From assembly GCA_963643165.1 (NCBI GenBank), contig CAVIJD010000009.1, positions 940-64,939 on the forward strand: a stretch of 64,000 bases of DNA, in the 5' to 3' direction. Position numbers and translations under genes: made by a program. Positions 8,358-61,108 of this stretch are shown here, piece after piece; position 1 is the stretch's first letter; each line of letters opens with the position of its first letter. Under the pieces are notes generated by a model. It was not told the DNA's origin. It did no database searches and worked only from the letters and a program-made list of their open reading frames with translations. The stretch is from a bacterium (GTDB lineage Bacteria; Bacteroidota; Bacteroidia; Bacteroidales; WCHB1-69).

Positions 8358-8379
8358 ATACAAACGGGTTTAAAGTCGG

Positions 8380-8387: not shown

Positions 8388-8547
8388 CAAAAATTGTGCC
8401 ATAAGGATAAAACTGCCGAAATGACTGGCGGCAAGGAATCCGCCTGCATTTTTTTCATGCCCTTACAATAATAATTTGCGCCCGTTGCCGTTGAACGCTT
8501 ACCTGCTTTTTTCACCAACAGGCATATTTTACAACATATCTTTTAAG

Positions 8548-17306: not shown

Positions 17307-17909
17307 ATGCTTCGATTACAAAGACTGGTCTTTCTGTGCTGTCTGCTGTTCTGCCTGACCGTCATGCTGTGGGCGTGCGGCCGCAAGGCGGGCAACGAGA
17401 CCCCGAAACCCGTGGCCTATTTCCGCATCGACATCCCGGATCACCGCTATGTTCACACAGACACGACCCTGCCGTTTCAGTTTGAACGCTCCGCCGAAAC
17501 AGACGTGGCCATCGTTCCGAAAGAGAAAGGCTCTTGCTGGATTGACTTAGAATACCCCGCCCTGAACGCGACCCTGAAACTCACCTATCTTCCAATACGG
17601 AACGCCGACAGTCTGCGCGACCTCATCGTCCGTGAAGACAAGATGGTGAAATTCCATTATCAGAAAGCCGAAGATGTCGAGTACTCCATCGTCAAAGATG
17701 CCGAAGACCGGCTTTGGGGTCAGATTTATGACATCGAGGGACGGGAAGTCGCCACGCCTTTCATTTTCTGGCTGACCGACAGTTCGCGCCATTTCCTGCG
17801 CGGGTCGCTGTATTTCAATTTCACACCCAACAACGACTCCCTGGAGCCCGTAATCAAATACTTACGAGAAGATGCCCTGCATTTTGTCAACACTTTTCAA
17901 TGGAAATAA
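17307..17909 (+). CDS. gldD: Gliding-motility/T9SS-associated lipoprotein GldD
   Basis: Lipobox LWAC, and GldD-like blocks PKPVAYFRIDIPDHRY, LPFQFE, LEYPALNATLKLTY and HFLRGSLYFNFTPNNDSLEPV. Confidence 0.7.
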   Translation: MLRLQRLVFLCCLLFCLTVMLWACGRKAGNETPKPVAYFRIDIPDHRYVHTDTTLPFQFERSAETDVAIVPKEKGSCWIDLEYPALNATLKLTYLPIRNADSLRDLIVREDKMVKFHYQKAEDVEYSIVKDAEDRLWGQIYDIEGREVATPFIFWLTDSSRHFLRGSLYFNFTPNNDSLEPVIKYLREDALHFVNTFQWK

Positions 17910-17928
17910 ACCTGTAACGTCCAGCACT

Positions 17929-45864: not shown

Positions 45865-46707
45865 TTAGTAATCGCCGAGGGTTTGCGGCAACTGCGCCAA
45901 GGCAGCGGCGGCCTGCTCGTCATTAGGGGCAGATCCATGCCACTTGTGCGTGCCTTCCATGAAGTCAACGCCTTTGCCCATCTCGGTATTCATCACAATG
46001 GCCACGGGCTTGCCGTTATGGGCCAGTGACTTGGCCAAGGTTAAGGTCTGCACGCACTTTTTCATGTCGTTGCCGTCAACTTTGAGCACCATCCAGTCGG
46101 AGTCCTCGAGTTTGCTGCGTAGTCTGCCGAGACTGCAAACCTGGTCAGTATTTCCGTCAATCTGCTTGCCGTTCAGGTCGATAGTCATGATGAGGTTATC
46201 GACATGTTTTGCGCCGGCAAACATGACTGCCTCCCAGATTTGACCCTCTTGCAACTCACCGTCACCCGTGAGGACAAATACGAGATGGTTGTCGTTGTTG
46301 GCTTTTTTGGCCAGTGCAGCGCCAATGGCTACGGATACGCCTTGTCCTAACGATCCCGACGCGATGCGTATTCCGGGGAGTCCCTCTACTGGGGAGGGAT
46401 GTCCTTGCAGACGGGAATGTAATTTGCGGAACGTAGCCAACTCCTCGACGGGGAAATAACCGCGGCGGGCCATCACACTGTACAGCACCGGTGAGATGTG
46501 ACCGTTAGAGAGGAAGAACATGTCTTCGCCATTCCCGTTTTGGGTGAAATTTTCCGGCTTTATGTCCATAATCTGAAAATAAAGAGCCGTCAGAAAGTCG
46601 GCACAGCCGAGAGAACCGCCGGGATGTCCAGATTTGGCGCCGTGAACCATTCTTATGATATCACGCCTTACTTGCGTGGCAATGTCTTGTAATTGTTTGG
46701 TGTCCAT
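45865..46707 (-). CDS. Transketolase, N-terminal (ThDP-binding) subunit of a split enzyme
   Basis: SGHPGGSLGCADFLTALYF and GDGELQEGQIWEA motifs. At 280 aa it is only the N-terminal module. Confidence 0.9.
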   Translation of the reverse strand: MDTKQLQDIATQVRRDIIRMVHGAKSGHPGGSLGCADFLTALYFQIMDIKPENFTQNGNGEDMFFLSNGHISPVLYSVMARRGYFPVEELATFRKLHSRLQGHPSPVEGLPGIRIASGSLGQGVSVAIGAALAKKANNDNHLVFVLTGDGELQEGQIWEAVMFAGAKHVDNLIMTIDLNGKQIDGNTDQVCSLGRLRSKLEDSDWMVLKVDGNDMKKCVQTLTLAKSLAHNGKPVAIVMNTEMGKGVDFMEGTHKWHGSAPNDEQAAAALAQLPQTLGDY

Positions 46708-46718
46708 AATTGGTGATA

Positions 46719-47126
46719 TTATTTGTTTAATGCTACTTCTTTTGCGATAGAGTCGGCAATTTGCTGAAACTCGTCAGGGGTCAACTGCACTCTCTCGGCC
46801 TTGAAGTTCAAGTCGCCGACACCGTTGATGGGGACGAGGTGAATGTGGTTGTGCGGAACATCAATGCCGATGACAGCGACGCCGATACGTTTGCAAGGCA
46901 TAGCCTTCTTGATGCCGGCTGCAACTTTCTTGGCAAATATCATCATCTTGCCGAGCAAATCGTCGGGAAGGTCGAAGATATAATCGTTCTGTAATTTGGT
47001 AATCACTAACGTATGCCCTTTGGCGATAGGGGAGATATCGAGGAAGGCAAAGAAGTTTTCGTCTTCGGCAATTTTGTAACAAGGTATCTCGCCTTTTATG
47101 ATTTTGGTAAACAGGGTATCTTCCAT
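46719..47126 (-). CDS. HIT-family (histidine triad) protein
   Basis: LFTKIIKGEIP start and the HNHIHLVP histidine triad. Confidence 0.85.
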   Translation of the reverse strand: MEDTLFTKIIKGEIPCYKIAEDENFFAFLDISPIAKGHTLVITKLQNDYIFDLPDDLLGKMMIFAKKVAAGIKKAMPCKRIGVAVIGIDVPHNHIHLVPINGVGDLNFKAERVQLTPDEFQQIADSIAKEVALNK

Positions 47127-47141
47127 AATCGTTTGATAATA

Positions 47142-47615
47142 TTAACGTGAAATATTCAAAATTTCGAACTGCATCTCACCGGCGGGAGCCTGCATTGTGA
47201 CGGTGTCGCCTTTGGAGTTGCCGATCAGCGCTTTAGCCAAGGGACTGGAAACGGAGATCTTTCCGGCTTTGAAGTCAGATTCCGACTCGGGCACAATCGT
47301 GTAAGTCATCTCAGCACCCGTCTTGATGTTCTTGACGGTTACGATGGAATAGATGAGCACTTTGGATACGTCAATTTTGGACTCGTCAAGAACCCTTGCT
47401 TTGGCAATAAGGTTACGGAGATTGGCAATCTTAAGTTCGAGCAAACCCTGTGCCTCCTTGGCTGCGTCATACTCTGCATTTTCAGACAAGTCGCCTTTGT
47501 CACGGGCCTCGGCTATCGCTTGCGATATCTTAGGTCTTTCAACAGATTCGAGTTCGTTGAGTTCATTTTTCAGGGCATCAAGGCCTTCTTGGGTGTAGTA
47601 TTTAATATCTTCCAT
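47142..47615 (-). CDS. greA: Transcription elongation factor GreA
   Basis: EARDKGDLSENAEYDAAKEAQ coiled-coil tip; 157 aa. Confidence 0.95.
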   Translation of the reverse strand: MEDIKYYTQEGLDALKNELNELESVERPKISQAIAEARDKGDLSENAEYDAAKEAQGLLELKIANLRNLIAKARVLDESKIDVSKVLIYSIVTVKNIKTGAEMTYTIVPESESDFKAGKISVSSPLAKALIGNSKGDTVTMQAPAGEMQFEILNISR

Positions 47616-47637
47616 AATTGATTGTTTTATTACACAA

Positions 47638-47667
47638 ATAGAAGAGACTCTTTCAAGCCTCTTCTAT
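47638..47667 (-). terminator. Hairpin between the PorV-like gene and greA
   Basis: 9-bp stem atagaagag / ctcttctat with a 12-nt loop. The minus-strand T-run is weak (tttgtgt). Confidence 0.4.
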
Positions 47668-47693
47668 TATGCTGTAAAATGGTTAAATAAATC

Positions 47694-48881
47694 CTATAAC
47701 GTAAATTTGAGGCCGATATAGTGGTTACCTTTCCATTTGTGGGTAAATCTGTAAGCGTAGTCAATATAGATGCGGCTGCCATTGTTTCCTTTAGCCAAAG
47801 GAATGACGGCGGTAGCGCCTACAGAAGGTCCAATGAAGAAGGAGTCGCTGTTAAGCAACACCGTTGTGACTGTCTGTGTAGCATCGTTGGCGTTTGTTTC
47901 TTTCTGTGAGCTGATGTTCTCCAAAGAGTAGCCGGCGCGGACCATAAAATAGTTCATGAAGCCATACTCGACACCGACGGCGAAAATGTCGCGGGTGTAA
48001 GAGTTAGCCGTGAAAGAACCGGCGAGCGTGATTCTGTGTTGAGCGTCATCACGGGTAAGGCCTTCAGCTTCGAGGTCTTCTTTAGACATAGAAGCGTACT
48101 CCTTGCCGAAGAAGAGGAAGTCGTAAGACACGCCGATGGCAAGCAAAGCGGGCATCTCATATTCAGCGGAACGGACAGCAAGTGTCTGCTCGTGCGTAGA
48201 ACCGGTGATGATGCTTCTGAAAGTCATACCGTCACCTTTGTAACTCATCGGGAGACCGATATTGCGCAAGGAGACACCGATTTTGAAGTTTTCGAATTTG
48301 CCTGCGATGTATTGCACACCAGCATCAATGGCGAATCCCGTAGCGTGGAGGTCGGCAATGCTCTCGTTGATGATCTTCAGGGAGAGACCACCCTTGATGA
48401 AGTTGTTGAAAGACTTAGCGTAATGAAGGCCGATGTACATCAGGTTCGGGCTGAATGTACCAAGACCACCCTCAGGCTGTGCGACGGTAGTGATGGGCAC
48501 ATCGCCGAAGCCCATAGACATGAAAGATACACCAAGCACACCGAAATCCTTTCCTTTGCGCCCGAGTTTCTGCGCAAAGGAAAGTGAATTGATGTTAATG
48601 CCAGCGTTAGAACCGACGAGGTATTGCGTGCGGTTGAAGCAGAGTTCAGTTTTCTTGACGTACGTAAGACCTGCCACGTTGGAATAGACAGACTCCAAAC
48701 CACGGATTTCTGCAATGCCGGCGTTTGCCATACCATTGGAACGGGCCCACGGGTCAATCAGCAGATGAGATGCACCGGCTTGGCCTGAACGGTCTCTATT
48801 ACCTGCCCATGCGTTTTTTGGCATGCCGGCGACCAAAAGGGCAACTCCTGCGAAAATTATTAATGATTTTATGTTTTTCAT
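47694..48881 (-). CDS. PorV/PorQ-family (FadL-like) outer-membrane beta-barrel protein
   Basis: Signal peptide, then GQAGASHLLIDPWARSNGMANAGIAEIRGLESVYSNVAGL. This matches the family N-terminal pattern G-x-AGA-x-x-L-x-I-x-x-x-AR-x-x-GM-x-x-AG-x-A...N-x-AGL. Ends in ...IGLKFTL. Confidence 0.6.
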   Translation of the reverse strand: MKNIKSLIIFAGVALLVAGMPKNAWAGNRDRSGQAGASHLLIDPWARSNGMANAGIAEIRGLESVYSNVAGLTYVKKTELCFNRTQYLVGSNAGININSLSFAQKLGRKGKDFGVLGVSFMSMGFGDVPITTVAQPEGGLGTFSPNLMYIGLHYAKSFNNFIKGGLSLKIINESIADLHATGFAIDAGVQYIAGKFENFKIGVSLRNIGLPMSYKGDGMTFRSIITGSTHEQTLAVRSAEYEMPALLAIGVSYDFLFFGKEYASMSKEDLEAEGLTRDDAQHRITLAGSFTANSYTRDIFAVGVEYGFMNYFMVRAGYSLENISSQKETNANDATQTVTTVLLNSDSFFIGPSVGATAVIPLAKGNNGSRIYIDYAYRFTHKWKGNHYIGLKFTL

Positions 48882-48911
48882 ATTCTTATCGTTTTTTCTG
48901 GATTAGTAATT

Positions 48912-51900
48912 TTAGAAACCATTCAAGTCGGTAGGACGCATTGCACAGAAGAATTTGAGCGTACGTTCGCCGAGACCAGGAGCTTTGACATGGATGATGT
49001 AAACGCCGCCTGCAATCGGAATGTTGGCATGGTTCTTCAAATCCCATTGTACGTAAGTTGTGTTGGCATCACCCTTGGTGATTGTCCTGATCAATGTTCC
49101 GCTAACGGTATAGATGGAAATCGTACAGTTTGCAGGAAGGTTGACGATGCGGACATAGTTCTCAAGAGCGGTGGACTCGTATTGTGAGAATCCATAGTAC
49201 GGATTAGGAACAATGTTGATCTCATCAAGCACGTTCTGGACAGCCTCCTTAGATTCGGTCACAGCCGTAGGAACAAGGTTCTTCGTGGTGAACTGGTACA
49301 TCGGATAACCGCTGTTCTGAGAAGCATTTGCAGACTGTGCAGGATCACTGTACCAACGTGAGGAGTATCTCAAGTAAGGACGTGTGACACGCAGTTTGAA
49401 AGTGACGTCAGAAGAGAGCCAGTTGTCTTCCTGCAACGTTGCAGGCATCGGGATGCTGGTCCACATTACGTTGTTGAAGAGCTGCATCTTGGCACGTTTA
49501 CGGTCGTTGCTGCCGTAATTTTCGTTGCTGGTGAATGTTTTGAACTTCTCAACAAGCCATTTGCCCTCGTCGTAAGCACCACACTCAAAGTATGGATAAC
49601 TTACGCCATCGGTGCCAACGAATGTGCCGCCTTGACCGCTGGTGATGATGTCATTGTCGTTGTAGTTACGCTGTCTGCTTGAGTTACGGTAGTACATACT
49701 ACAGGTGTTACCTGCACTGTTCATCACATAGATGTAATGACGACCACCATTGAGCGGCTCACCGAAGGTTACACCGTATGAATCTCTGAAGGAGTTGTAA
49801 GTGGTGATAGACATCGGGATCGGTTTGCCCGTCTCTTCATCCAGGATGAGTTCGCCCGTCTGAAGGTTGCGGTAGTAAGCATAGACGTTCGTCGGGTTGA
49901 AAATCATATCGTTACCATTGTTCAGGGTGTCTTCGGAGTTTTCAGCGAACATGATGTTCAGACGCTCACCCGTCTCGACGTTGATGGCATAGCCTGGGAA
50001 CCAACCAAGACCGGTGGTGCCGCTGTTGTCCGGTTTGCCGTCTTTGCCGACAGAAGGAGCATTCTTAGGCTCATGTCTCACGTTGCGGTAAGTCTGGCCG
50101 TTGAACTGCTGCTCAACTTTATAGTCGTTAGCCTGTGTAGCAGAACCAGCCTCAAGCACGACGGCTCTGGTCCATTTGCTCTGGTCGGGCGTGATGACCA
50201 CATCAACAGAGTAAAGGTTGGTGAGCGTTTGGTTGTAACCCGGGTTGTAAGGTTGTGCTGCAATAGCTGTGAAGTCGAAGTAAGCCGGTTGAGGAGAGCC
50301 TTCGTCCTGACCATAGTAAACATTGTCAGGTACAAGGTATTTGGCTTGAGGACCGCCATCATACGGGGAAGAAAGCACGTAAGGAGCCCAAGTTCCATTG
50401 AGAACGCCTTCGAATTGCTGCTCAGGATCTTTGAAACCACGAGTCTTTTCGTCTTTGTTCAATGTCTTGGCTGCCATAATGGTACACATATCTTCGGTAC
50501 GCCACTGATAGTACTTGTCTTCAGCACCTTCCTGTACGGAGTTGGTTTCCCATTTACCGGAAGACTGTTGACCTGCGTGGATCCAGTTGGCGGGATAGTC
50601 ACCCTCCTGATCAGCCACAAAGTCAAGCCACTGAATGTCGCCGGAGTATTCAACCGTAGCGTCGATGAAGTCAACCTGACCATATTTAGCAAGGTTAGCG
50701 TAGGTGTAACCACCAGCGGTATTGACGACGTATTCATCGAGGTCATTCTGGTGGATTGCGAAGTTGTAATTCTTGATAGAGATGGAAATACCTAAATCGA
50801 GGAAGAGCTCTTCATTTGTCATGGAGATAGGCATGCCAGCGGTGGTGACGCGGTCGAGTCCAAGGTCAGCAAGTTCTTCGTCGGTAACATCGTCAGAGAT
50901 GATGAGCTGCCATTCAGTGCTGTCGTTCACATCTTCAGAAACGCTGTTGGGCAAGAATTTCACAACATAGTCGTAAGGTTTCACCTGCAGCGGGTCGATG
51001 ACCTTAATGCTCAAAGGACCGTAGTTTTCTTTGTATTGAACATTATTGTAGGTGTTGTTGGCAAGGATGAGGTCGCGGGACTCGTCTGTGAGATCGAGGA
51101 AGAAACCGCCGTTGCCCTGACCCTCAATACGGGTAATCATAGGCTGGTCGCCGTAAACACTGTTGGTGAGGTTATCGATGGGTTTGTGAGGAACGCCGGT
51201 GTAAACTTTGATGTTACGACGTCCTGCAAGGTACGGGGTCGTCTGGCCGTCAAGGTTCGTAGCGTCCAAGGTGAATTTCTTGAACTCATTGTAACCGTAT
51301 GCGATAACCATGAAGTAATACTCCTTGTGGTTTACAAGGTTCTTGTTAGAACCCGTTGCAAATTTGTCTTCGGTTACGATAAAGGAGTGGGAGATGCCCT
51401 TGTTGCTACCGTTGACCATTTCAGTGGCCACAGAAGTTCCGACTGCATCGTTGTAGATCCAGTTGACAATCTGAGAAGCATTGTTCTCAACGTCACATTG
51501 TGCAATCAGCATAGCTTTGCTGACATCGTTGAGGTCGGTTGCACTTACAGAAGCGTTGGCAAGCTGATAAATCTGATAACCTTCAAATTTGTACTGACGG
51601 TCTTCTGTAGAAAGTGTGTCCGTAGTCGTGACGGGCATAATGGAAGAAGTTACGATAGTGTCAGGATTACCCTCTGCATCGTAAGCATAGACGGTATCAA
51701 TCTGGTTGACATATTCCGTAGAAGTGAGCGTTTTGGTAATCTGCGGGTCAAGTTCAACGTAAGACTCGTGGTAGTTGTTGCTGTTAGGATCGTCGTTGGA
51801 CAGGTAAATCACAAGTTGATTTTCGAGTTCGCGGATAGTCATGTCAGGAGCGTCAGGGCCATCGAGGGTCTTGAAGCAGTTCTCGAACAGAGACTGGCAC

Positions 51901-53612
51901 TTATCGTCAGCGATTTTCAGAAGGTCAACAGAAGCCTGTGCGCCACCCTGTGATGCACGTGCCCAGGGAATACCAACGGTGATGTAGTTTACAGAACCCG
52001 GTTTCAGCGTGAACGGACCAGCGGACTGCATGAAACGACGGTCGTAAGGAGCGTTGCCTTCGTTAGCCTCTGTCCAGCCGCCATCCTTAGAGTAGTTCGG
52101 CTCGATGCCTTGCGTACCCCAGTTACAAACGTCAGAAGTTCCAGGGAACATGAAGTCGCAATCAGGACCGTTGCTGTCGTGGGCGTTGCCGCCGAATTTC
52201 ATCTTGGTATTGTCTTTCCAAATACCCTGAAGCATGTTATAATATTCGTAAGCCTCGCTCGGGTCACCAACTACGGTGTTGTCGTTGTTATGATACACGA
52301 ATCTTCTCATACCATAACGCTCGTTATCAACGATACCGTCGCCGAAGTTCACACCATTGATGGCCATCTGGTCGTTAGCGTAGCTGCTCTTGAGGAACTT
52401 GTCGCAATATCCGGAGAAAGAAGCGCTGTCAGCGTAGAATTTCGGGTTGTCTCTGTTGTCGGCATCCATATAAGGTCCTTGGAAGAAGTCAACACCGATT
52501 GCGGGCGGTTGGTCTCCATAAGCCCAAGTTTGGCCGGAACCGTCAACGTTAGTACCGTTGTAGCAGTATCCAAGACCACGACCCACGTCGCAACCTACAT
52601 AGTCATCGTAAGCGTAACCAAGGTCCGGGTCAACCCACTGGGAGAAGAAAGTGTTGGTAAGGGTATAGGTTGAACGGTTGATAATCTCGTAGGAGTAGAA
52701 TGTCATGTTGTTGAGGTCGTCATTCGTAGAGAAGCCGAAAGCCTGTCCACGGATTTCAAGGCCGATAGGGCTACCGCCGGACTCCGTGTGGGGACCGCCG
52801 TTATCGTTGAAGATCCAGAACATGGTTGCGTCGCCTTTCAAGACGTGGTCGGCATAGATCATACCGTTAGAACGGTTGTAGTCGGGTTCGGAACCCGGGT
52901 AGTTTCTTTGTTCAAGCCAAAGGTCCTCAGGAGTTCTGGGGAGTTCGTGAGCAGCTGCGGCAGCAATGTTGTCCTCTGTCCAAGGGCAGAGCTCATTATT
53001 GATGTCGTAGTACGGGTAGTCACCATTTTCAGGGTCATAGACACCGTTGCCGTTCACATCCTTGAAGGGGGCAAGGTAGTAAGAATAACCCTCGTCGCCG
53101 TGGGCTGGCCAGTTGGCGATTGAAGAAGGCATCACATAACCGGAAGTGTTGTAGCCGGCAATGTGCTGGTCAACTTCGGAACGTGTGATTTTGAAATGTT
53201 TGTCGAATTTGATACACATGGACTGCGTTGTACCGGCACCAGAGATTTTCAGAGGGCCTGTCCAGTAGTCGTTACCGACTTGTCTGAAACGTACAGCAGC
53301 GAGTTTGAGCTGACCGTTAGCGTCGCGGCCGCCAATCCACAGAGCAGCGCAGAACATAGAGGTCTTGCCTGAACCGAGCGGAATCTCGTATTCAGCCAAT
53401 TCTTTGAACCACATGGTACCGCCTGTCTCGAGGTATGCACGAACATTGTTAATAGTAAGTTCGTTAGAACCGCTGGCGGGAAGACAAGTAGCAGATTCTG
53501 CCTTCGGTGTGGATACTCTTTGCGCTCCTTTTGACTTCTCGGCGTGCACAGAACTGAAAGCCATGCACACGAGCAGGAGCATCAAGCAGAAAATTTTACC
53601 GTTATTTTTCAT
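48912..53612 (-). CDS. 1566-aa secreted protein of unknown function with T9SS-like C-terminal domain
   Basis: Signal peptide MKNNGKIFCLMLLLVCMAFSSVHA and one long uninterrupted ORF. I recognise no catalytic motif. Conspicuous blocks: ANWPAHGDEGYSYYLAPFKDVNGNGVYDPENGDYPYY and WVDPDLGYAYDDYVGCDVGRGLGYCYNG. Confidence 0.85.
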   Translation of the reverse strand: MKNNGKIFCLMLLLVCMAFSSVHAEKSKGAQRVSTPKAESATCLPASGSNELTINNVRAYLETGGTMWFKELAEYEIPLGSGKTSMFCAALWIGGRDANGQLKLAAVRFRQVGNDYWTGPLKISGAGTTQSMCIKFDKHFKITRSEVDQHIAGYNTSGYVMPSSIANWPAHGDEGYSYYLAPFKDVNGNGVYDPENGDYPYYDINNELCPWTEDNIAAAAAHELPRTPEDLWLEQRNYPGSEPDYNRSNGMIYADHVLKGDATMFWIFNDNGGPHTESGGSPIGLEIRGQAFGFSTNDDLNNMTFYSYEIINRSTYTLTNTFFSQWVDPDLGYAYDDYVGCDVGRGLGYCYNGTNVDGSGQTWAYGDQPPAIGVDFFQGPYMDADNRDNPKFYADSASFSGYCDKFLKSSYANDQMAINGVNFGDGIVDNERYGMRRFVYHNNDNTVVGDPSEAYEYYNMLQGIWKDNTKMKFGGNAHDSNGPDCDFMFPGTSDVCNWGTQGIEPNYSKDGGWTEANEGNAPYDRRFMQSAGPFTLKPGSVNYITVGIPWARASQGGAQASVDLLKIADDKCQSLFENCFKTLDGPDAPDMTIRELENQLVIYLSNDDPNSNNYHESYVELDPQITKTLTSTEYVNQIDTVYAYDAEGNPDTIVTSSIMPVTTTDTLSTEDRQYKFEGYQIYQLANASVSATDLNDVSKAMLIAQCDVENNASQIVNWIYNDAVGTSVATEMVNGSNKGISHSFIVTEDKFATGSNKNLVNHKEYYFMVIAYGYNEFKKFTLDATNLDGQTTPYLAGRRNIKVYTGVPHKPIDNLTNSVYGDQPMITRIEGQGNGGFFLDLTDESRDLILANNTYNNVQYKENYGPLSIKVIDPLQVKPYDYVVKFLPNSVSEDVNDSTEWQLIISDDVTDEELADLGLDRVTTAGMPISMTNEELFLDLGISISIKNYNFAIHQNDLDEYVVNTAGGYTYANLAKYGQVDFIDATVEYSGDIQWLDFVADQEGDYPANWIHAGQQSSGKWETNSVQEGAEDKYYQWRTEDMCTIMAAKTLNKDEKTRGFKDPEQQFEGVLNGTWAPYVLSSPYDGGPQAKYLVPDNVYYGQDEGSPQPAYFDFTAIAAQPYNPGYNQTLTNLYSVDVVITPDQSKWTRAVVLEAGSATQANDYKVEQQFNGQTYRNVRHEPKNAPSVGKDGKPDNSGTTGLGWFPGYAINVETGERLNIMFAENSEDTLNNGNDMIFNPTNVYAYYRNLQTGELILDEETGKPIPMSITTYNSFRDSYGVTFGEPLNGGRHYIYVMNSAGNTCSMYYRNSSRQRNYNDNDIITSGQGGTFVGTDGVSYPYFECGAYDEGKWLVEKFKTFTSNENYGSNDRKRAKMQLFNNVMWTSIPMPATLQEDNWLSSDVTFKLRVTRPYLRYSSRWYSDPAQSANASQNSGYPMYQFTTKNLVPTAVTESKEAVQNVLDEINIVPNPYYGFSQYESTALENYVRIVNLPANCTISIYTVSGTLIRTITKGDANTTYVQWDLKNHANIPIAGGVYIIHVKAPGLGERTLKFFCAMRPTDLNGF
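48915..49217 (-). other. T9SS-CTD-like terminal domain (101 aa) of the 1566-aa protein
   Basis: NIVPNPYYG...ISIYTVSGTLIRTI...WDLKN...AGGVYIIHVKAPGLGERTLKFF, followed by an extra tail CAMRPTDLNGF. Confidence 0.55.
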
Positions 53613-53640
53613 ATATGTACTTTATTTTTATTTCTAACTA

Positions 53641-56600
53641 TTAAAAACCGAATTGGATACCCAAACTTGCGCGGATCGGGCGACTGTAGTTATACGGGTT
53701 CTGAACTCTCATCTGGTAGTATGCGATGTAAGAAGGCACATAGATCTGAGAGTTGATTGCCTGCTGGTACTCAGAAGCGGAAAGGTAACCATCATCATCG
53801 GCATTGCCCGTGTAGTCATACACAGAAACGATGTTCTTGAAGTTGAACAGGTTCTGGATGTCAACATAAATGGTCAGGTAACCCGGTTTTGCTGATTTTG
53901 CATTTCCGTCTTTGTCTTTGGCATTTTTGTTCAAGTTGAACACGAAAGTCTTGTCAATACGAAGGTCACACTGATACTGCCACGGCATGTTAGAACCATA
54001 GAGGGAACCGGAGATGGTGGAAGTGGTACCGGAGACGATGGTAGAGTTAGGTGTGCTTGAACGGGTGTACGGTGTACCGGAAGCGGCAGAGAACAACAAT
54101 GAAACGCCTGTGTTGGCCAACCATTGAATGGTCTTCGTCGTCGGCTTGCCGTCAACCATGACAGTCTTCTCACTTGTAGGTCCGTCGTAGTCAACACCAC
54201 CGTCGAAACGATAGTCGAGGTTGATACCGATTCTGTGTCTTTGGTCGAATGACAGGTTGGTCAGCGTTCTCAAGTTCGGCTGGTTGGCAGCCAAAATTGA
54301 AAGCTGTGAAGTTGTGCTGGAACCAGTACCTTTAGCATACTGAAGCGTGTAGTTTGCAGAAAGCGTGAGGTTGTGGGTTCTGTTCATCTTGTAAGCGAAC
54401 GTGAAACCTTGTACTGTACCGAAGTCGATGTTCTGGTAAGAATAATAGGTGTTCGGATATGCGCCCGTGAAGCGGTAAGCTTGGATCTGGTTACGTTTTT
54501 CAGAATAGTAAGCGCTGATGCTGATAGAAGATCTGGCACCGATTTTCTGACGGAAACCGATTTCATAGTCAATACTCTGCTGAGGTTTCAGGTTGGGGTT
54601 GTTCACGATGTCGCTGGTGGATTTACGTTGCGAAATGAACAGATAGTCAATCGGTGAAATCTGCAGGTTGGTCGGACGGGATGTGATGATGTTGTAGTGA
54701 GCGTAGAACAAAGAGTTGTCAGACACCGGGAAAGAGAAAGAGACGCGAGGCATCACAGACCACTGTGCAACGTAGTCGGTGAATGCGTTAGATTCAACTT
54801 TCGTGATGCCGCCAATGAGGTTGTTGTTCTCGTCATAGAGCGGGTTCTTCAAGACAGGACCGTTAACGTTAAGTGAAAGAGCCGTCTCAGGGTTCGTAAC
54901 CTCATTACCTTGTGCATCGTACCAGGTGTCACCACTACGGTAACCGACGATAGAGCTGGAGGTGAAGCCGTCACCGCCGATTTCGCTTTCGCTCATATAA
55001 GTGTCAGAGCCGGAATAATAAACGACCCAGTCAGATTCAGCATTGCCTGCGAATACGTCTCCCATTGCCTTGTTGGAGTAGGCAGGGTTCTTGCTGAGGA
55101 TGCTCCACATGTCGCCGACTGTGTAGGCTTCGCGGAACAGGTACGGGTCTTTCAACACTTCCTGGTTGGCGTCAAAACGGTCAACACGCAGACCGATGTT
55201 GAAGAGGAGGGAGTTGATGGAGAACTTGTCTTGCAGATAGAATGCCATGTAGATAGGTTCGTAAGCGCCGATGTTGTAAGAACGCTGGCCGCCGGCAATC
55301 GTATCGTTGAAGAAGTTGGAAATCGTGGTTTTGTGTTTGTTGATTCTTCCCGTGTAGTCATAACCATAGTAGCTGACCATCGGGCTGACACCGCCGGAGG
55401 TTCCTTGGAGAAGTTCCTCGGCTGAGAACATGTTCAGGTTGTAGGTGGAAGGATCGAGGTTGTCGATGTCAATCCAATCGTTACCGTTGGGGTCAAGACC
55501 AAGGGATGTACGCAGGTTGCGGTCGAAGTTGGTCTGCTCGTTCAGGTTGATGGCTCTGTTGTAGTCAACGGTGAAGACGCTGCCGTCATCCGTGATGATG
55601 GGGTTGTCCTTGTCAAGCTCCGAGATGTGAGAGTTGGTCTCATTTCTCATCAACGTCCACAAAGAGACGGGAGCAATGCTGTATCCTCTGTAGGTAAGTT
55701 TTTCAAAGTCGAAACCGAACTTCAACTCGTGGTTCTTGAGGTTCATCGAGATGCTGGCTTTCACGCCCAACTGTTCGGTTTGACCTTTGCTGTATCCGTT
55801 ATAGACGGTACCGGGAGAATAGTACATAGAATAGATAAGGCTCGGGGAGTCACCGTTGCGCAGTGCACCGTACTGCTGGTAAACGTCAAGGTCTATCGGC
55901 AGGCTGGTTGAGCCGTAATAGTCATAATAAGCATTGTTAGTGATGAAATTGTCAACAAAGTTGAGCGTATATTGGGAAAGGATCGGGTTTACGTTAAAGT
56001 TGGGGTTGATTTTGAAAGAGACGATGGAGTCGTACCAGCCCTGGAACTCTACGGCGTTGTAAAGCGTGATGGGCACGCTGTCAACGGTGACGGTCAGTTC
56101 GTCTTGCGCTGAGGAGTAGCCTCTAGCCTTGGTTGTGGTGAACTGGCCCACATAGCCGTACTCGAAGAAACGGTCTTTGTGATTTGCGGCATACGAGTGG
56201 GAGTTGAAGCGTGTATAGTTGACGTTCACGTCATACATCACATTCTTCAGCACGCCGTTGCCGGTGGTATCCGTATAGACACGGTGGTTCAAACGGGCAT
56301 TGAGACGCATGGTGGAGTTGGTCACGATAGGGTTGTTGTCGCCGTTGAGAAGAGCGTAGGTGGTGCTCCAGGATTTACCGTTCACATATTCGTAAGATCC
56401 GCTGAGAGAGAGTCTCATGTTGTTTCTCTTGCCGAGGGTGAAGTCGAGCTTGAGCTGTCCCAGGTAGTCCCAGCTGCCGGCATTTTTTCTGACACGCTCT
56501 TTATGGAAAGCGTCGCTGGTCAGGTAACAACCGGCCTGCTGCCAAGAGCCGAACTCTGAAGAGCTGTAACGCAACGGGTTGGCGATCAGGGCTTCTCTAG

Positions 56601-57486
56601 TTTCGTCGTTTGCAACATAGACACCGCCACGTGCGGGAGATGCGTCATGGTCGTATGAAACCTCACCGCTGAACATGAAACCGATACGGGTGGGGTCGTT
56701 TTTCTTTTTGCCTTTCAAGAGCGGTCCAGAAACGGAAGCTGCGCCCAAGAAATTGTTGTATCCGTCAATGGAACCTCTCAACTCGATGGAGCCGTGGAAG
56801 TCTTTCGGGGCCGACTTGGTCGTAATGACGGTGAAAGATGTTCCGTCGCCGTATTCTGCCGGGATACCACCCTGAATCAACTGGGCTTCCTCGATGGACG
56901 ACATGGAGATACCACCGTTACCACGCACACGCACACCGTCGATGATCGTCTGTTGACCGTCTGAACGGTTACCACGCACAGAGGTCATGGAACCATCGAC
57001 ACTGGAGACACCCTCGAGGTTGGCCAATGCGCTGGTTACAGAACGCCCCGGCGTTGTACGCACGTTGTCACCGCTGATTCGGCTGGTTGAACTGGTGTTG
57101 TCCGGGTCAAAGACAGGCGGTTCATACTTGATGACAACCTCTTCCAAGTCGCTGGAACAGTCAATTGCAAAGTCAATGAAGAGAACCTGACTGGTTCCCA
57201 CCTTAATGCCTGTCTTTTTGAGTGATTTCTTGCAGGTCATCTGGGCGTCAGCCTCGAGGTCGTACGTTCCAAGCTCTACGCCGAACATTGAATACTCACC
57301 CTTGTCATCAGCCATAGCCATGTTCACAACCTTGTCGCTGAGCTTCAGGAAGATCTTTGTGTACTGCAAAGGCTCTCCGGTCTGATCCACGACCTTACCT
57401 TTAATGGTACTGGTCTGCGCAAATGCCATGCCTGAGAAAAGAATAACTACTCCTAGAATTGAGAGTACTTTTTTAATCATAGCCAT
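53641..57486 (-). CDS. Oversized (1281 aa) TonB-dependent-receptor-like outer-membrane protein: CarboxypepD_reg domain + plug + beta-barrel
   Basis: Signal peptide. IKGKVVDQTGEPLQYTKIFL...DDKGEYSMFGVELGTYDL is the CarboxypepD_reg-like part. LEGVSSVDGSMTSVRGNRSDGQQTIIDGVRV...EEAQLIQGGIPAEYGDGTSFTVITTK is the plug. The C-terminus is ...RASLGIQFGF. An alternative ATG lies at 57480. Confidence 0.75.
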   Translation of the reverse strand: MAMIKKVLSILGVVILFSGMAFAQTSTIKGKVVDQTGEPLQYTKIFLKLSDKVVNMAMADDKGEYSMFGVELGTYDLEADAQMTCKKSLKKTGIKVGTSQVLFIDFAIDCSSDLEEVVIKYEPPVFDPDNTSSTSRISGDNVRTTPGRSVTSALANLEGVSSVDGSMTSVRGNRSDGQQTIIDGVRVRGNGGISMSSIEEAQLIQGGIPAEYGDGTSFTVITTKSAPKDFHGSIELRGSIDGYNNFLGAASVSGPLLKGKKKNDPTRIGFMFSGEVSYDHDASPARGGVYVANDETREALIANPLRYSSSEFGSWQQAGCYLTSDAFHKERVRKNAGSWDYLGQLKLDFTLGKRNNMRLSLSGSYEYVNGKSWSTTYALLNGDNNPIVTNSTMRLNARLNHRVYTDTTGNGVLKNVMYDVNVNYTRFNSHSYAANHKDRFFEYGYVGQFTTTKARGYSSAQDELTVTVDSVPITLYNAVEFQGWYDSIVSFKINPNFNVNPILSQYTLNFVDNFITNNAYYDYYGSTSLPIDLDVYQQYGALRNGDSPSLIYSMYYSPGTVYNGYSKGQTEQLGVKASISMNLKNHELKFGFDFEKLTYRGYSIAPVSLWTLMRNETNSHISELDKDNPIITDDGSVFTVDYNRAINLNEQTNFDRNLRTSLGLDPNGNDWIDIDNLDPSTYNLNMFSAEELLQGTSGGVSPMVSYYGYDYTGRINKHKTTISNFFNDTIAGGQRSYNIGAYEPIYMAFYLQDKFSINSLLFNIGLRVDRFDANQEVLKDPYLFREAYTVGDMWSILSKNPAYSNKAMGDVFAGNAESDWVVYYSGSDTYMSESEIGGDGFTSSSIVGYRSGDTWYDAQGNEVTNPETALSLNVNGPVLKNPLYDENNNLIGGITKVESNAFTDYVAQWSVMPRVSFSFPVSDNSLFYAHYNIITSRPTNLQISPIDYLFISQRKSTSDIVNNPNLKPQQSIDYEIGFRQKIGARSSISISAYYSEKRNQIQAYRFTGAYPNTYYSYQNIDFGTVQGFTFAYKMNRTHNLTLSANYTLQYAKGTGSSTTSQLSILAANQPNLRTLTNLSFDQRHRIGINLDYRFDGGVDYDGPTSEKTVMVDGKPTTKTIQWLANTGVSLLFSAASGTPYTRSSTPNSTIVSGTTSTISGSLYGSNMPWQYQCDLRIDKTFVFNLNKNAKDKDGNAKSAKPGYLTIYVDIQNLFNFKNIVSVYDYTGNADDDGYLSASEYQQAINSQIYVPSYIAYYQMRVQNPYNYSRPIRASLGIQFGF

Positions 57487-57533
57487 TAATTTATATTAAA
57501 CTTTAAAATTTATACTATTTTGAATTTGAGCGC

Positions 57534-57541
57534 CAAAAATA
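57534..57541 (-). promoter_or_regulatory. -7 box (TATTTTTG) upstream of the three-gene OM unit
   Basis: Plus-strand caaaaata, 48 nt upstream of the ATG at 57486. Confidence 0.45.
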
Positions 57542-57605
57542 CAAAAATTCCGTTTCGTTTGGATTGCGAAATTTCAATATCTTCAAAATACTTTTTCACG
57601 GTGCC

Positions 57606-58001
57606 CTAAAACTTTCTCTTGAGAATTTCCGAATAGATTACCCCCTTTAACAACTCCTCATCACTAAAGTCAAGCAATGAACCCTCATTGCTTTTATCTT
57701 CAACTACTTGCACAGTCGGTTTCGCTTTAGTACCCTTCGGTTTCTTCTCATTAACGCCCGCCTCCGGCATACGCTCGTAGGTGAAATATTCACTCCCTTT
57801 CTGGGACTGCTGTTGAGGTTGCTGCCATGTCTCCTCCAGCTCCTCGTCGATTATCTCTTCCTCAAATTCTTCCATCTCAACGTCTTCCTCCGGCATTACA
57901 TCCGGGACTGCTTTCTTGTCCTTTTTCTTCTTCAACAACGAAGGCAATGAAAACAAGGCCACTAACGCTATCGTGACTATAAACTCTAAAAATGATTCCA
58001 T
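57606..58001 (-). CDS. Small membrane-anchored acidic protein, function unknown
   Basis: N-terminal TM (FLEFIVTIALVALFSLPSLL), a KKKKDKK stop-transfer, an acidic run (PEEDVEMEEFEEEIIDEELEE), a Q-rich stretch and a C-terminal GVIYSEILKRKF. Confidence 0.5.
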   Translation of the reverse strand: MESFLEFIVTIALVALFSLPSLLKKKKDKKAVPDVMPEEDVEMEEFEEEIIDEELEETWQQPQQQSQKGSEYFTYERMPEAGVNEKKPKGTKAKPTVQVVEDKSNEGSLLDFSDEELLKGVIYSEILKRKF

Positions 58002-58045
58002 AATATTATTTATCTATTGTATATATAATATTGTTGTTTGTTCTT

Positions 58046-59083
58046 TTATTTTTGTTTCCCCGGATTATTGCTTGTGTGCTGAACCGCTGTTTTGTCCTCG
58101 TTCTGTTCAGCCGTCTTCGTCGATTTGGCTTTGGCTATGCTCACGTTCAATTCGTAGCCTATCAACAACACCAACGAACTCCAGTTGAGCCACAACAGAA
58201 TGGCAAACAAGGCCCCCAATGAACCGTATATCAGATTGTAATTAGAGAAATTGGAAAAATAGACATTCAGCCCCCACAACAACACGACCATCAACAGGGT
58301 ACAAGTGGTTGAGCCGGCAGAGAAGAACCGGTACCGGCTCTTCTTCTCCCCGGACGCTATGTGGTAGGTGACGCTGACCATAAAATAGATGGCCCCGAAG
58401 GTGAGCAGCCACTTGATGCCATGTATCGCATAATAATAGACGGCGTTCGGACTTTCGCCCATCAGCCGGTGGTGCAGCCGGTTGACAAGCGCGGCAGAGA
58501 AGATGAAAAGCAGCACTACCGTCACTATCGTGATGAAGAATATGAACATCAGCACGAAACTCATGCCGAGTTGTTTTATGAAATTCCGCCGCTTTTCTTG
58601 CAAAAACGAGGTGTTGAGCGCCACAAGGATGCCATTCATGCAAAGCACGGCAAAATAGATGCCGAAGAATAACATAAAGGACGACAGCGTTCCGTTTTGA
58701 CGGGTGATGACATCTGTGACCACATTCTCGATGGCCGGCCAGGCGTAGGTCGGGAACAGCGACTGCAGGAACTCAAGCAATACGGTCTGCACATTGCTGC
58801 CCAAAAATGCTATGGCAGAAAAGAGGGCGATGAGCATCGGTATCAGGGCTATGAACACTCTATAGGTGAGTGCCGCGGCGCGCTGGAAGATGATGCCTTT
58901 CCCTAACGACATCATATAGAACTGCATGACATCGTACAACGGCATCTGCTGCAGCCCGACAAATGATACGGTCTTTGACTTCCGGATTATCGGGCCCACA
59001 ACCGGCATCTCTTCCCACTCTTTGCCCATCCGCCGGAACCGTTGTCTCATCACTTTCAGTTTGCGCCTTGTCTTCTCACTCAT
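58046..59083 (-). CDS. YihY/BrkB-family inner-membrane protein
   Basis: FQRAAALTYRVFIALIPMLIALFS is typical of the family; six predicted TM segments. Confidence 0.8.
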   Translation of the reverse strand: MSEKTRRKLKVMRQRFRRMGKEWEEMPVVGPIIRKSKTVSFVGLQQMPLYDVMQFYMMSLGKGIIFQRAAALTYRVFIALIPMLIALFSAIAFLGSNVQTVLLEFLQSLFPTYAWPAIENVVTDVITRQNGTLSSFMLFFGIYFAVLCMNGILVALNTSFLQEKRRNFIKQLGMSFVLMFIFFITIVTVVLLFIFSAALVNRLHHRLMGESPNAVYYYAIHGIKWLLTFGAIYFMVSVTYHIASGEKKSRYRFFSAGSTTCTLLMVVLLWGLNVYFSNFSNYNLIYGSLGALFAILLWLNWSSLVLLIGYELNVSIAKAKSTKTAEQNEDKTAVQHTSNNPGKQK

Positions 59084-61103
59084 CGTAACGTAAATTAAAA
59101 GCGGCTTTCAATTCGTCCTTGGCAACCACATTCATCCTTTCTTCGTTCTTTCGAATGCGTTGTCCAGCAATACCCTGCCCTGTCAACTGGTTCTTTATCG
59201 CCTCATAACAACGATTCATCAGCATATTCTCACGCTGCTGCAAGTCGATCGTGTCTTCCGTCGCTATGTTAACGCCGGTCTGTATTTCCAGCACAAGTTC
59301 TTCTTTCTCCTTAAGGCAAGTGGCAATCTCCTGAATCTGATGCACTTGCTCCATATTCAGCATCACCGTGTCGCGAGGCGGGAAAGCCATAGCCTTGAAA
59401 GTTCCGTTCCCCGTGATGGCATCCCCAATGAAGTCAATCGGCGAAGCGGCAATCTTGACAATAAGGTTGGCCAACGTTTTCCAGAATATCTTCCGGAACG
59501 AGAACTCCGGCGACGCGATATTGCCTTTTACGGGCACCTCCATACGGGCGTGATGCTTCCGGTCGGTCAGAATATAAACCGCCGCCCTCACCGGTATCTT
59601 GGTCACGGCTGTCAGGCTCCGGTCTTTCTTGCCGAACACGGGCTTGTAAACGTCAAGGCCGTTGCGGCTGTCGAGCCAGTTGTTCTTAATGGCAGTTGTG
59701 CTCCTGAACGTGAACAGGCCGTCCTGCAGCGGACTGGCAAGATAATGCAGCGAATAGGGCGAAAAGTCCTTTAATGCCAGATTCTCTATCATCACCTCGA
59801 TGTCTGCGTTCTTGAGATCCATGATGTCTGCATTGCCGGAACACCGGAATGTGCCCATGCTCCCCAATCCGGCCGTTGCCGCAAACGTCGCGTTCTGCTC
59901 GTCGGAGATGTTCTCCGCCGACACCTCAATGTCCCTGACAACAAACTCCTGCTCCTGCGGCGACACAGACCGGTCGGCAAACAAGAATTGCCCGTTTGAA
60001 ATCGCCAACTTCTTGACAACAAAGTGCAATTTGTCCTGACGGACGGCGGCCGTGTCCTGCTTTTGAGGCTCGTCTTGAGCCTGATCTGCCCCGTCGTCTG
60101 TTTTGTGACTGTCCTTGGTGACGAAAAGCCGCGACAACGTGTTCCCGTCCTTGAAAATCTCATACCGGAACATGGGACGGTCAAGTTTGATGCTGCTGAT
60201 CCGGTATTCTTTGTTCTCGAGGTCTATCTTGTCAATAGCAACCTGCAGTGAAGACAACGAGGCCAACGGGCTCTTGTTCTCCGTAGTTGCTTCTACATCT
60301 TTGAGACAAAGGCTGCCAGAGGCATTCAAGTTCAGCAGGTGGCTCGTAGAACCCGTAGCCTTCAGGTCGCCGTCAAGTTTCCCTTTCAACGTCTCCACGT
60401 TCAAGAACTGCGTCAGATAGGGCATCACGGTGGCTATGTCGAACTTGCTCCACTTCAAGTTCAGTTCATACTTCTCTTTTTCAATGTTATATGCCATCTT
60501 CACGGCCAGTTTCCCCTCCTTCTCAAAATCGAGGTTCAGGTCAACTTGCGTGTCGTCCCCTGAAAAATAGATACAGGGCACGTTGAGCACTATGTTTTTG
60601 AGACCTATACTGCTCCCCACCGCCACGTCCTGATAGGTCAATGCACTGTTACAGATGCTTATATTATTAAGGGTGACGCTCCAGCCCGACGGTTCGTCGT
60701 CTTTGTCCTCCTTTTTGTTTTTTGAAAAAAAGTCAACAATGTCGCTGAAATTGAAGCGGCTGTTGTTTTGTATCACTTGTCCGTCCAGTCCGTCCAGTTC
60801 CACTTTGCGGAAATAGACTGATTTTCCGAGCAGGCGTGGCAGCGACAACCGCACCTTCAGTTTGGAGAAAGAGACAAAATCCTTTTGCGGATTTTCCTCT
60901 TTCATCGTAAAGCCGAGGATGGAGACTCCGCCGTTGAAGATATTGATGCGTATATGTTCGATGTCCACCTTGCGGTGGCAGAGCTCTTCGCTGTGTTTCA
61001 CCAGATAGGCTCTGGCAATGGGGCCTGCCGCCACGCTCACTACAATCAGCACGGCCAGCACAATCCCGACAGTCAGAAGCGCTATCTTACAGCCTCTTTT
61101 CAT
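59076..61103 (-). CDS. DUF748/AsmA-like membrane-anchored protein
   Basis: N-terminal TM anchor followed by long repetitive beta-rich sequence (VDIEHIRINIFNGGVSILGFTMKE..., VELDGLDGQVIQN...). ATG at 61103 (TTG at 61112 in the ORF track). 8-nt overlap with the yihY-like start. Confidence 0.55.
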   Translation of the reverse strand: MKRGCKIALLTVGIVLAVLIVVSVAAGPIARAYLVKHSEELCHRKVDIEHIRINIFNGGVSILGFTMKEENPQKDFVSFSKLKVRLSLPRLLGKSVYFRKVELDGLDGQVIQNNSRFNFSDIVDFFSKNKKEDKDDEPSGWSVTLNNISICNSALTYQDVAVGSSIGLKNIVLNVPCIYFSGDDTQVDLNLDFEKEGKLAVKMAYNIEKEKYELNLKWSKFDIATVMPYLTQFLNVETLKGKLDGDLKATGSTSHLLNLNASGSLCLKDVEATTENKSPLASLSSLQVAIDKIDLENKEYRISSIKLDRPMFRYEIFKDGNTLSRLFVTKDSHKTDDGADQAQDEPQKQDTAAVRQDKLHFVVKKLAISNGQFLFADRSVSPQEQEFVVRDIEVSAENISDEQNATFAATAGLGSMGTFRCSGNADIMDLKNADIEVMIENLALKDFSPYSLHYLASPLQDGLFTFRSTTAIKNNWLDSRNGLDVYKPVFGKKDRSLTAVTKIPVRAAVYILTDRKHHARMEVPVKGNIASPEFSFRKIFWKTLANLIVKIAASPIDFIGDAITGNGTFKAMAFPPRDTVMLNMEQVHQIQEIATCLKEKEELVLEIQTGVNIATEDTIDLQQRENMLMNRCYEAIKNQLTGQGIAGQRIRKNEERMNVVAKDELKAAFNLRYDE

Positions 61104-61108
61104 GATTT

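Follow-up and report, generated by a model that had tools for sequence, protein, structure and literature searches.

What might a TonB-type barrel, a very large secreted protein and a PorV-like barrel accomplish together when their genes lie back to back? The question is raised by three adjacent genes, here called gene 1, gene 2 and gene 3, in a 64,000-nucleotide (nt) stretch of DNA from a member of the Bacteroidales (assembly GCA_963643165.1, contig CAVIJD010000009.1, positions 940 to 64,939 of the forward strand), the whole of which is referred to below as the window. A first-pass annotation of the window, made from the sequence without database searches, had interpreted the trio as a dedicated module for the export, anchoring or surface assembly of the gene 2 protein, distinct from the named core type IX secretion system (T9SS), Sus and Bam subsystems. 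The answer we favor, tentatively and at a likelihood somewhat short of even, is that the gene 2 protein is delivered by the T9SS, held by gene 3 and works with gene 1, most likely in the uptake of a ligand. As far as sequence comparison can tell, each of the parts belongs to a known kind and it is the combination that is new; no description of the three genes together was found in the searchable literature or in the source annotations, and no function is assigned to them there.

Conservation of the gene cluster across Bacteroidota

The three open reading frames (ORFs) were found on the minus strand as first annotated (Table 1), with intergenic gaps of 28 nt between genes 1 and 2 and 30 nt between genes 2 and 3, and their reading as a tightly spaced unit was borne out by orthologous loci in relatives, where the median gaps were 26 and 29 nt. 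To follow the unit beyond close kin, a step proposed in the first-pass annotation, we examined its gene order in loci retrieved with three different queries. Using gene 2 of the window, the order gene 1-gene 2-gene 3-greA was present in 72 of 77 loci from uncultured Bacteroidales, Lentimicrobiaceae and termite-gut Bacteroidota with identities down to 45%, while the remaining five were cut by contig ends. A 36%-identical relative as the query yielded 79 loci from Flavobacteriales, Chitinophagales (Flavipsychrobacter, Taibaiella and Nemorincola caseinilytica JCM 32105) and one bin labelled Chlorobiota, 64 of which contained all five genes including the HIT-family gene that follows greA; most of the other 15 were contig-limited or second copies. 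Finally, with gene 3 of locus L094 as the query, all five genes were present in 21 of the 22 Crocinitomicaceae-type loci with at least 4.5 kb of upstream sequence. The same five-gene order occurred at L160, L161 and L322 (the last labelled candidate division KSB1), where the gene order around the cluster otherwise differs. The Bacteroidota that carry the cluster come from rumen, gut, freshwater and soil, and its cultured carriers include N. caseinilytica JCM 32105 (L235), while a stand-alone copy of gene 2 was seen in Crocinitomix catalasitica ATCC 23190 (L097). An apparent loss of synteny in Crocinitomicaceae (L078-L157) was rejected, because these loci represent a second, stand-alone copy of gene 2 in genomes that have the full cluster at another location.

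This conservation bears on the simplest alternative, namely that the three proteins act independently as an ordinary TonB receptor, a T9SS cargo adhesin or enzyme with a cleaved tail and a spare PorV paralogue, their order being a frozen accident next to greA. Every part does come from a family able to act alone. However, order and spacing of the trio persist over at least three orders of Bacteroidota at 33-40% protein identity in otherwise differing surroundings, and we regard independent action as very improbable.

Several metagenome bins with the cluster carry labels of unrelated taxa (Oscillospiraceae, Sphingomonadales, Henriciella, Akkermansia, Azovibrio and Bifidobacterium), such bins being found at L001 and L011 (CAVCMI010000009.1 and CAVEXN010000001.1), L083, L095, L127, L192 and L220. 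The closest relatives of the window, at 96-98% identity, are labelled Oscillospiraceae. Taxon labels of metagenome bins are unreliable, and the oddly labelled bins are probably mislabelled or contaminated.

The C-terminal domain of gene 2

The last 101 residues of gene 2 had been likened to a T9SS sorting domain. An AlphaFold2 (AF2) model of residues 780-1566 (predicted local distance difference test, pLDDT, 70.5; predicted template modeling score, pTM, 0.67) was compared with the PDB using Foldseek, and the top match was PorZ (5m11, E 5.7e-5), followed by the C-terminal domain (CTD) of RemZ in the SprA translocon (8gl8_D) and by PorU (6za2). All three are T9SS CTDs and were matched with a probability of 1.00. 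The matches covered only the last ~100 residues, with no structural neighbor found by Foldseek for the rest of this model, and assign the beta-sandwich fold of a CTD to the very C-terminus of the predicted structure. In contrast to the fold, the score of the window protein against the type A sorting domain model TIGR04183 (17.1 bits) stayed below the cut-off of 23.

Closer examination of 31 diverse relatives revealed matches to TIGR04183 in 14 (E<0.01; best scores 22.6-23.0 bits), to the PorZ equivalog model NF052228 in 12 (best E 6.2e-12) and, weakly, to the PorU model NF033707 in three. In all four members inspected individually, the PorZ match was restricted to the last ~90 residues (approximately positions 658-747 of the 757 in the model), and in two of the four it was better than the match to the generic tail model; the best PorZ score among them, 32.7 bits where the cut-off is 260, is far from that of a full-length PorZ. 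Gene 2 of the window itself matched neither NF052228 nor the PorU sortase model NF033707, and no peptidase domain was found in it. The tail ends in a conserved extension, ...KFFCAMRPTDLNGF (KFFCAMRPTDLNxF), of which RPTDLNxF is invariant in close relatives and which takes the family-wide form KWFGxxRPxDLxxF. Predicted fold and sequence identify the tail of gene 2 as a T9SS-type CTD, specifically a PorZ-like one.

Among 16 cluster orthologues from three orders, conservation was 0.68 for residues 1466-1566 versus 0.49 for gene 2 as a whole. A tail that is conserved above the rest of its protein is unlike a disposable signal, and this too speaks against independent action of the three genes with a cleaved-tail cargo. 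Two T9SS proteins, PorZ and PorU, are known for retained tails, which are bound to PorQ and PorV, respectively, and cognate PorV-like barrels have been proposed to shield CTDs from cleavage (PMC10202324, PMC8754138). The PorZ-like character of the gene 2 tail thus provides the idea of dedicated anchoring with a concrete precedent, the PorZ-PorQ pair.

The PorV/PorQ-family barrel encoded by gene 3

The description of gene 3 as a FadL-type barrel resembling PorV and PorQ was borne out by sequence homology. Its product scored 128 bits against the PorV/PorQ family model NF033709 (cut-off 90), its orthologue at L094 138.9 bits, and a profile built from 18 orthologues matched PorV of Flavobacterium johnsoniae in the PDB (6h3i_F, E 8.4e-15), followed by TodX and TbuX; a single-sequence search of the PDB returned nothing useful. 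The N-terminal motif AGN(K/E)DR.GQAGA.ELLINPWARS was conserved. Against the equivalog models, on the other hand, gene 3 scored 64.3 bits for PorQ (NF033711, cut-off 220), 59.1 bits for PorV (NF033710, cut-off 250) and 54.1 bits for PorV2 (NF052325, cut-off 325), which places it slightly nearer to PorQ than to PorV, as is also the case for L094. The term "PorV2" encountered in the literature was traced to the superscript of a reference and does not denote a protein there. By these scores gene 3 is a PorV homologue that forms a subfamily of its own, distinct from PorV, PorQ and PorV2. A canonical PorV that happens to lie next to genes 1 and 2 would not fit the PorV score of 59 bits against the required 250, nor the broad synteny described above.

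The TonB-type barrel encoded by gene 1

All features that had been assigned to gene 1 on inspection were recovered, including an N-terminal signal peptide, a CarboxypepD_reg-like domain, a plug and a C-terminus reading GIQFGF. Four Pfam models (PF13620, PF07715, PF00593 and PF14905) scored above their cut-offs, with CarboxypepD_reg at residues 27-97 (37.2 bits, cut-off 32.3), Plug at residues 130-216 (26.7 bits, cut-off 23.9), the TonB_dep_Rec barrel at residues 635-1102 (56.4 bits, cut-off 27) and OMP_b-brl_3 (47.1 bits, cut-off 27). A plug and a 22-strand-type barrel domain are the domains expected of a TonB-dependent transporter. Intact orthologues comprise 1220-1311 aa, with a single ORF call of 1042 aa (L181). 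The plug motifs were kept across orders, and so was the family consensus LxEVxVxxYKxPLID that precedes the plug; the corresponding segment of the window protein, LEEVVIKY, which follows the N-terminal domain and precedes the plug, is by resemblance a candidate TonB box. Searches of NCBIfam with gene 1 detected no SusC/RagA or other equivalog, the sole match being a weak one to TOL_0244 (30.6 bits versus 645), and a single-sequence search of the PDB gave no match.

The architecture of gene 1 raises the question of whether this barrel could itself export or assemble gene 2. Such a TonB-energized, Oar-like factor would make the T9SS translocon unnecessary and leave gene 3 as the final anchor. Oar-type proteins share the build of CarboxypepD_reg, plug and barrel that is seen in gene 1, and gene 1 always lies directly upstream of gene 2. 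Moreover, the requirement of a TonB-dependent transporter for protein secretion has a precedent in Oar and PopC of Myxococcus (Gomez-Santos 2019, as cited in PMC9127263). On the other hand, the T9SS-type CTD fold of gene 2 and its PorV-family partner argue for the T9SS route, a folded protein of ~170 kDa is too big for a 22-strand plug-barrel, and stand-alone copies of gene 2 exist without a gene 1 of their own. We therefore consider an exporter role of gene 1 improbable.

The body and family of gene 2

Apart from its tail and a signal-peptide-like N-terminus that is visible in the sequence, gene 2 consists of a body of ~1440 residues. The first-pass annotation had recognized no catalytic motif in this protein, and the database searches agree, since the window protein had no Pfam family above threshold and the family profile found nothing among PDB sequences. 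Pfam and NCBIfam scans of the window protein and the 31 diverse members revealed no domain besides the tail other than occasional add-on immunoglobulin or cadherin domains in Pfam. The protein accordingly does not belong to an enzyme or adhesin family characterized in Pfam or the PDB. An AF2 model of residues 25-800, based on 34 sequences of at least 65% identity, was unusable (pLDDT 53); its Foldseek matches were meaningless (best E 7.7e-3, TM 0.16) and nothing was drawn from them.

The family to which gene 2 belongs is very large, strongly conserved and known by generic names only. More than 5800 homologues were retrieved by a word-indexed search. The best 120 listed were nearly all 1490-1605 aa in length (two being truncated), carried no precomputed Pfam domain and bore no name more specific than "hypothetical" or "T9SS type A sorting domain-containing protein"; a search with the family profile again retrieved generic names only. 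When residues 1-1200 were used for an exhaustive search with phmmer, the matches at E<=1e-3 amounted to 6992 clusters (50% identity), 2120 of which had E<=1e-30. Between different uncultured Bacteroidales, gene 2 is ~70-79% identical, and many Asp, Asn, Gly and aromatic positions are invariant.

In many genomes a second, lineage-specific gene 2 copy was present that is accompanied by neither a gene 1 nor a gene 3 of its own, either in tandem, a few kb off or 20-250 kb away (Table 1). In four of ten within-genome pairs the similarity of the tails far exceeded that of the bodies (0.90 versus 0.71 in one pair, 0.82 versus 0.52 in another), which suggests gene conversion or a shared anchor, while the other six pairs showed no such marked excess; we use this mixed result as a hint only.

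Among the 80 Crocinitomicaceae-type gene 3 loci (L242-L320), 54 had less than 4.5 kb of upstream sequence and still held part of gene 2. Most such contigs extend only a few hundred bases beyond gene 3 on its upstream side and stop within the 3' part of gene 2, a pattern that suggests that the assembly broke where the two gene 2 copies have near-identical tails. At two distant loci, LytTR response regulators were located beside a gene 2 copy or the cluster at L321 (1601-6342) and L322 (1-2550), and L321 additionally encodes a 1016-aa Reg_prop/Y_Y_Y histidine kinase, a sensor type known for glycan sensing. These regulators may hint at regulation in that lineage.

Transcription signals and layout of the locus

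The promoter-like box was present where it had been annotated upstream of gene 1 (Table 1). Taken alone the box is at chance level, with 32 occurrences of TAnnTTTG in the window versus 29.9 expected, but its position was kept in orthologues: about one third of the orthologous loci had an exact TAnnTTTG 54-56 nt before the start codon, and most of the remaining ones had a version with one mismatch at the same position. No TAnnTTTG was found on the coding (minus) strand within the 9.8-kb unit. Scans for sigma-70 promoters and for terminators were at the level of shuffled sequence (16 versus 11.8 and 13 versus 11.3, respectively), the former being ill-suited to Bacteroidota promoters. A GC-rich box, GCCGCCCCAAA, was often observed 3' of the promoter-like box in orthologous loci.

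A second element of the 5' leader abuts the start codon of gene 1 and was almost unchanged among 45 loci (within L001-L052) whose gene 1 products are ~46-98% identical to that of the window. In many relatives it constitutes a five-codon upstream ORF, MFNIN*, whose stop codon overlaps the start codon (TAATG), while in the window version the ATG of this small ORF is replaced by AAG. The element may act in translation initiation or regulation.

The hairpin that had been noted after the trio at 47638-47667 was confirmed with slightly extended boundaries. Its consensus stem comprises 14 bp, and six of the 14 pairs exhibited compensatory double changes (RNAalifold, 16 diverse loci). A conserved, covarying hairpin was found after gene 3 only, and an Rfam scan of positions 46500-58500, which include it, gave no match. 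The short gaps and the position of these signals are consistent with co-transcription of the trio as a single unit.

Table 1. Positions of the three genes, associated signals and other features of the window (positions are those of the window unless a locus is named)
Feature	Position	Strand	Description
Gene 1	53641..57486	minus	1281 aa, ATG start; TonB-dependent-transporter-type outer-membrane protein
Gene 2	48912..53612	minus	1566 aa, ATG start; secreted protein of a large uncharacterized family
Gene 2 C-terminal domain	48915..49217	minus	residues 1466-1566; predicted T9SS CTD fold, PorZ-like
Gene 3	47694..48881	minus	395 aa, ATG start; PorV/PorQ-family (FadL-like) barrel
Promoter-like box TATTTTTG (TAnnTTTG)	57534..57541	minus	Bacteroidota-type -7; 48 nt upstream of gene 1 ATG
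5'-leader element (A/T)A(A/T)GTTTAATATAAATTA	57487..57506	minus	abuts gene 1 start codon
Stem-loop, then TTT(G/T)	47637..47668	minus	after gene 3 and before greA; resembles a terminator or attenuator
greA	47142-47615	minus	GreA 183 bits (cut-off 167); downstream of gene 3
HIT-family gene	46719-47126	minus	HIT-family matches; downstream of greA
LptF/G gene	44389-45840		downstream of the HIT-family gene
YihY gene	58046-59083		upstream of gene 1
AsmA/DUF748 gene	59076-61112		DUF748 307 bits; upstream of gene 1
gldD	17307-17909		GldD 175 bits (cut-off 120)
Endonuclease/exonuclease/phosphatase-like gene	17872-19236		454 aa; overlaps gldD
secA	5055-8363	minus	SecA 1765 bits
ORF	5247-8471	plus	1074 aa; overlaps secA; probably a shadow ORF
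ORF	27032-30058		1008 aa; PmbA_TldD C-terminal domain 29.6 bits
Extra gene 2 copies	L158 8001-16403; L159 3668-12137; L160 1191-5324 and 8001-12110; L078-L157; L321 7001-11038		copies in other loci

Neighboring genes and the host secretion system

In nearly every locus examined gene 3 was followed by greA and the HIT-family gene, which are not claimed here as parts of the machine. Further downstream in the window are the N-terminal half of a transketolase, LptF/G, a glycosyltransferase and dxs, while the upstream side encodes a 131-aa protein without a match in NCBIfam or Pfam, YihY and an AsmA/DUF748 protein. This wider order of envelope genes (YihY, AsmA/DUF748 and LptF/G) was kept only in the closer Bacteroidales relatives. 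Scans of the neighbors with family models agreed with the earlier observation that neither porU nor susD is adjacent to the trio.

One claim about the host had to be corrected. The "classical CTD cargo" annotated at 17307-19236 is a merger of two overlapping ORFs, one encoding GldD and the other an endonuclease/exonuclease/phosphatase-like protein, and the latter scored 23.1 bits against Por_Secre_tail, below the cut-off of 27. GldD and this probable CTD protein make it likely, as judged from the window, that the host possesses a T9SS; core T9SS genes (sprA, porK/L/M/N) were not present within the 64 kb. 

Elsewhere in the window, two long ORFs were noted. The 1074-aa plus-strand ORF had no family match and overlaps secA on the opposite strand, and the only match of the 1008-aa ORF was to a PmbA_TldD C-terminal domain (Table 1).

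Proposed function of the three-gene unit

In the reading that we favor, gene 2 would pass the inner membrane via the Sec pathway and the outer membrane through the T9SS of the host by means of its CTD. Its PorZ-like tail would stay uncut and dock in the dedicated barrel of gene 3, which would hold the giant protein on the cell surface in the manner of PorQ with PorZ and PorV with PorU. The plug-barrel of gene 1 would act beside this pair, the products of a single transcription unit making up a fixed complex in the outer membrane, with gene 2 capturing or processing a ligand and gene 1 importing it with TonB energy, a Sus-like logic in which a T9SS-anchored protein takes the place of the SusD lipoprotein. 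In Cytophaga hutchinsonii, PorV was co-immunoprecipitated with the TonB-receptor-like CHU_1606 (PMC8564354). Ligand capture and TonB-driven uptake are favored because of the conserved plug and the TonB-box-like segment of gene 1, and because the extra gene 2 copies resemble alternative heads. For transport through gene 1, uptake is at least as likely as export.

Several observations weigh against this reading. The body of gene 2 contains no recognizable binding or catalytic domain in the scans described above, the model of its N-terminal half was unusable and the score of its tail stayed below the type A cut-off. The TonB box of gene 1 is one by resemblance, concerted evolution of the tails was marked in only four of ten paralogue pairs, and the T9SS of the host is likely rather than proven. 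In addition, the trio lacks an adjacent regulator or SusD-like gene of the sort that typifies uptake loci, and a housekeeping neighborhood with a single conserved copy resembles envelope maintenance more than niche uptake. The lack of regulators, together with the housekeeping location, speaks instead for a core role in the envelope.

In a further alternative, the trio is an accessory of T9SS secretion or attachment comparable to PorF, PorZ and PorQ and assists in the delivery or processing of the anchor glycolipid or otherwise in cargo attachment; gene 3 may then be the functional PorQ of this lineage and gene 2 its PorZ equivalent. The PorZ-like tail of gene 2 and the rank of PorQ as the highest-scoring equivalog model for gene 3 are in line with this role. 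PorF is a TonB-receptor-type component of the T9SS (PMC5445135), and porF, porQ and porZ mutants of Porphyromonas gingivalis W50 are alike in forming beige colonies and losing ~90% of their gingipain activity (PMC12704123). The trio locus, moreover, is single-copy, housekeeping-like and conserved across orders. Against an accessory role, the body of gene 2 is unlike the rest of PorZ, the PorQ score of gene 3 reaches 64 of the required 220 bits, and the many stand-alone gene 2 copies would suit variable "heads" better than a core part of a machine. To our knowledge, the list of P. gingivalis CTD proteins has no member of the gene 2 family of ~1400 aa, which argues that the trio is not a universal part of the T9SS. 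Gene 1, finally, is ~50% longer than the 92-kDa PorF (PMC5445135). We regard the accessory role as unlikely, yet it affects how the original interpretation is to be read: a dedicated module is supported by the tight syntenic unit, the non-canonical gene 3 and the PorZ-like tail, whereas its distinctness from the T9SS is uncertain, since the trio could instead be such a PorF/PorZ/PorQ-like accessory.

Returning to T9SS-dependent delivery with ligand uptake, it is possible, if rather doubtful, that the trio amounts to a new outer-membrane machine, found in three or more orders of Bacteroidota, in which a giant TonB-energized barrel is permanently coupled to a T9SS-delivered protein of ~170 kDa on a PorQ-like anchor and the extra gene 2 copies serve as exchangeable heads. 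The T9SS would in that case help to build a transport complex instead of releasing cargo or tethering it to a glycolipid, and a possible job for PorF alongside PorQ and PorZ would be suggested. If the favored reading is true, gene 2 and gene 3 would join PorU-PorV and PorZ-PorQ as a third case in which a retained tail is paired with its cognate PorV-family barrel, and a conserved operon would link such a pair genetically to a TonB-type barrel. This would provide a testable handle on how some CTDs escape cleavage as well as on the role of the TonB-receptor-like PorF. Genetics and outer-membrane proteomics are feasible in cultured carriers such as N. caseinilytica JCM 32105.

Comparison with known systems

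Among known systems, the PorZ-PorQ pair is close to the proposed arrangement in several respects, as the tail of gene 2 is nearest to that of PorZ in both fold and sequence and PorQ is the best equivalog for gene 3. The two differ in that no similarity was detected between the ~1440-residue body of gene 2 and that of PorZ and in that gene 3 scores far under the PorQ cut-off. Furthermore, porZ and porQ are not known to be linked in P. gingivalis, whereas genes 2 and 3 are adjacent and preceded by a gene for a TonB-type barrel. In P. gingivalis the CTD of PorZ is kept and held by a dedicated PorV-family barrel (PMC10202324, PMC8754138), and binding of the gene 2 tail by gene 3 would follow the same principle. 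PorU-PorV shares with the trio the order of a large CTD protein followed by a PorV-family barrel, the CTD of PorU being retained on PorV (PMC10202324), and PorU was the third-best structural match of the gene 2 tail. Gene 2, however, has neither a PorU match nor a peptidase domain, and gene 3 reaches 59 of the 250 bits required for PorV.

Other dedicated barrels offer more distant parallels. In PorP/SprF-type systems such as SprF-SprB, a barrel is encoded beside the cargo that it serves (PMC10202324), as is the case here; the cargo there carries type B CTDs, in contrast to the type A/PorZ-like tail and the PorV/PorQ-family barrel of the trio. In BamG-BamH of the Bacteroidota beta-barrel assembly machinery (BAM), a FadL-like 14-strand barrel grips a large surface protein via its extracellular loops (PMC12578637), but BamH is a lipoprotein without a CTD. 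None of the 13 PDB matches of the gene 3 profile at E<=10 was labelled BamG or BAM, the presence of a BamG chain in that copy of the PDB being unconfirmed.

With respect to gene 1, PorF (PG0534) and CHU_1606 are TonB-receptor-type barrels that are functionally or physically tied to PorV-family proteins (PMC5445135, PMC12704123, PMC8564354). PorF is smaller, at ~92 kDa versus ~142 kDa for gene 1, a comparison made by architecture and size in the literature only. SusC/SusD (RagA/RagB) likewise combine a TonB-dependent barrel that has a CarboxypepD_reg-type N-terminal domain, as in gene 1, with a presumed extracellular partner encoded beside it. In contrast to these systems, gene 1 does not match the SusC/RagA models, and neither a SusD lipoprotein nor a regulator of the type found in polysaccharide utilization loci is adjacent; the partner encoded beside gene 1 is a non-lipoprotein with a T9SS tail, accompanied by a PorV-like barrel.

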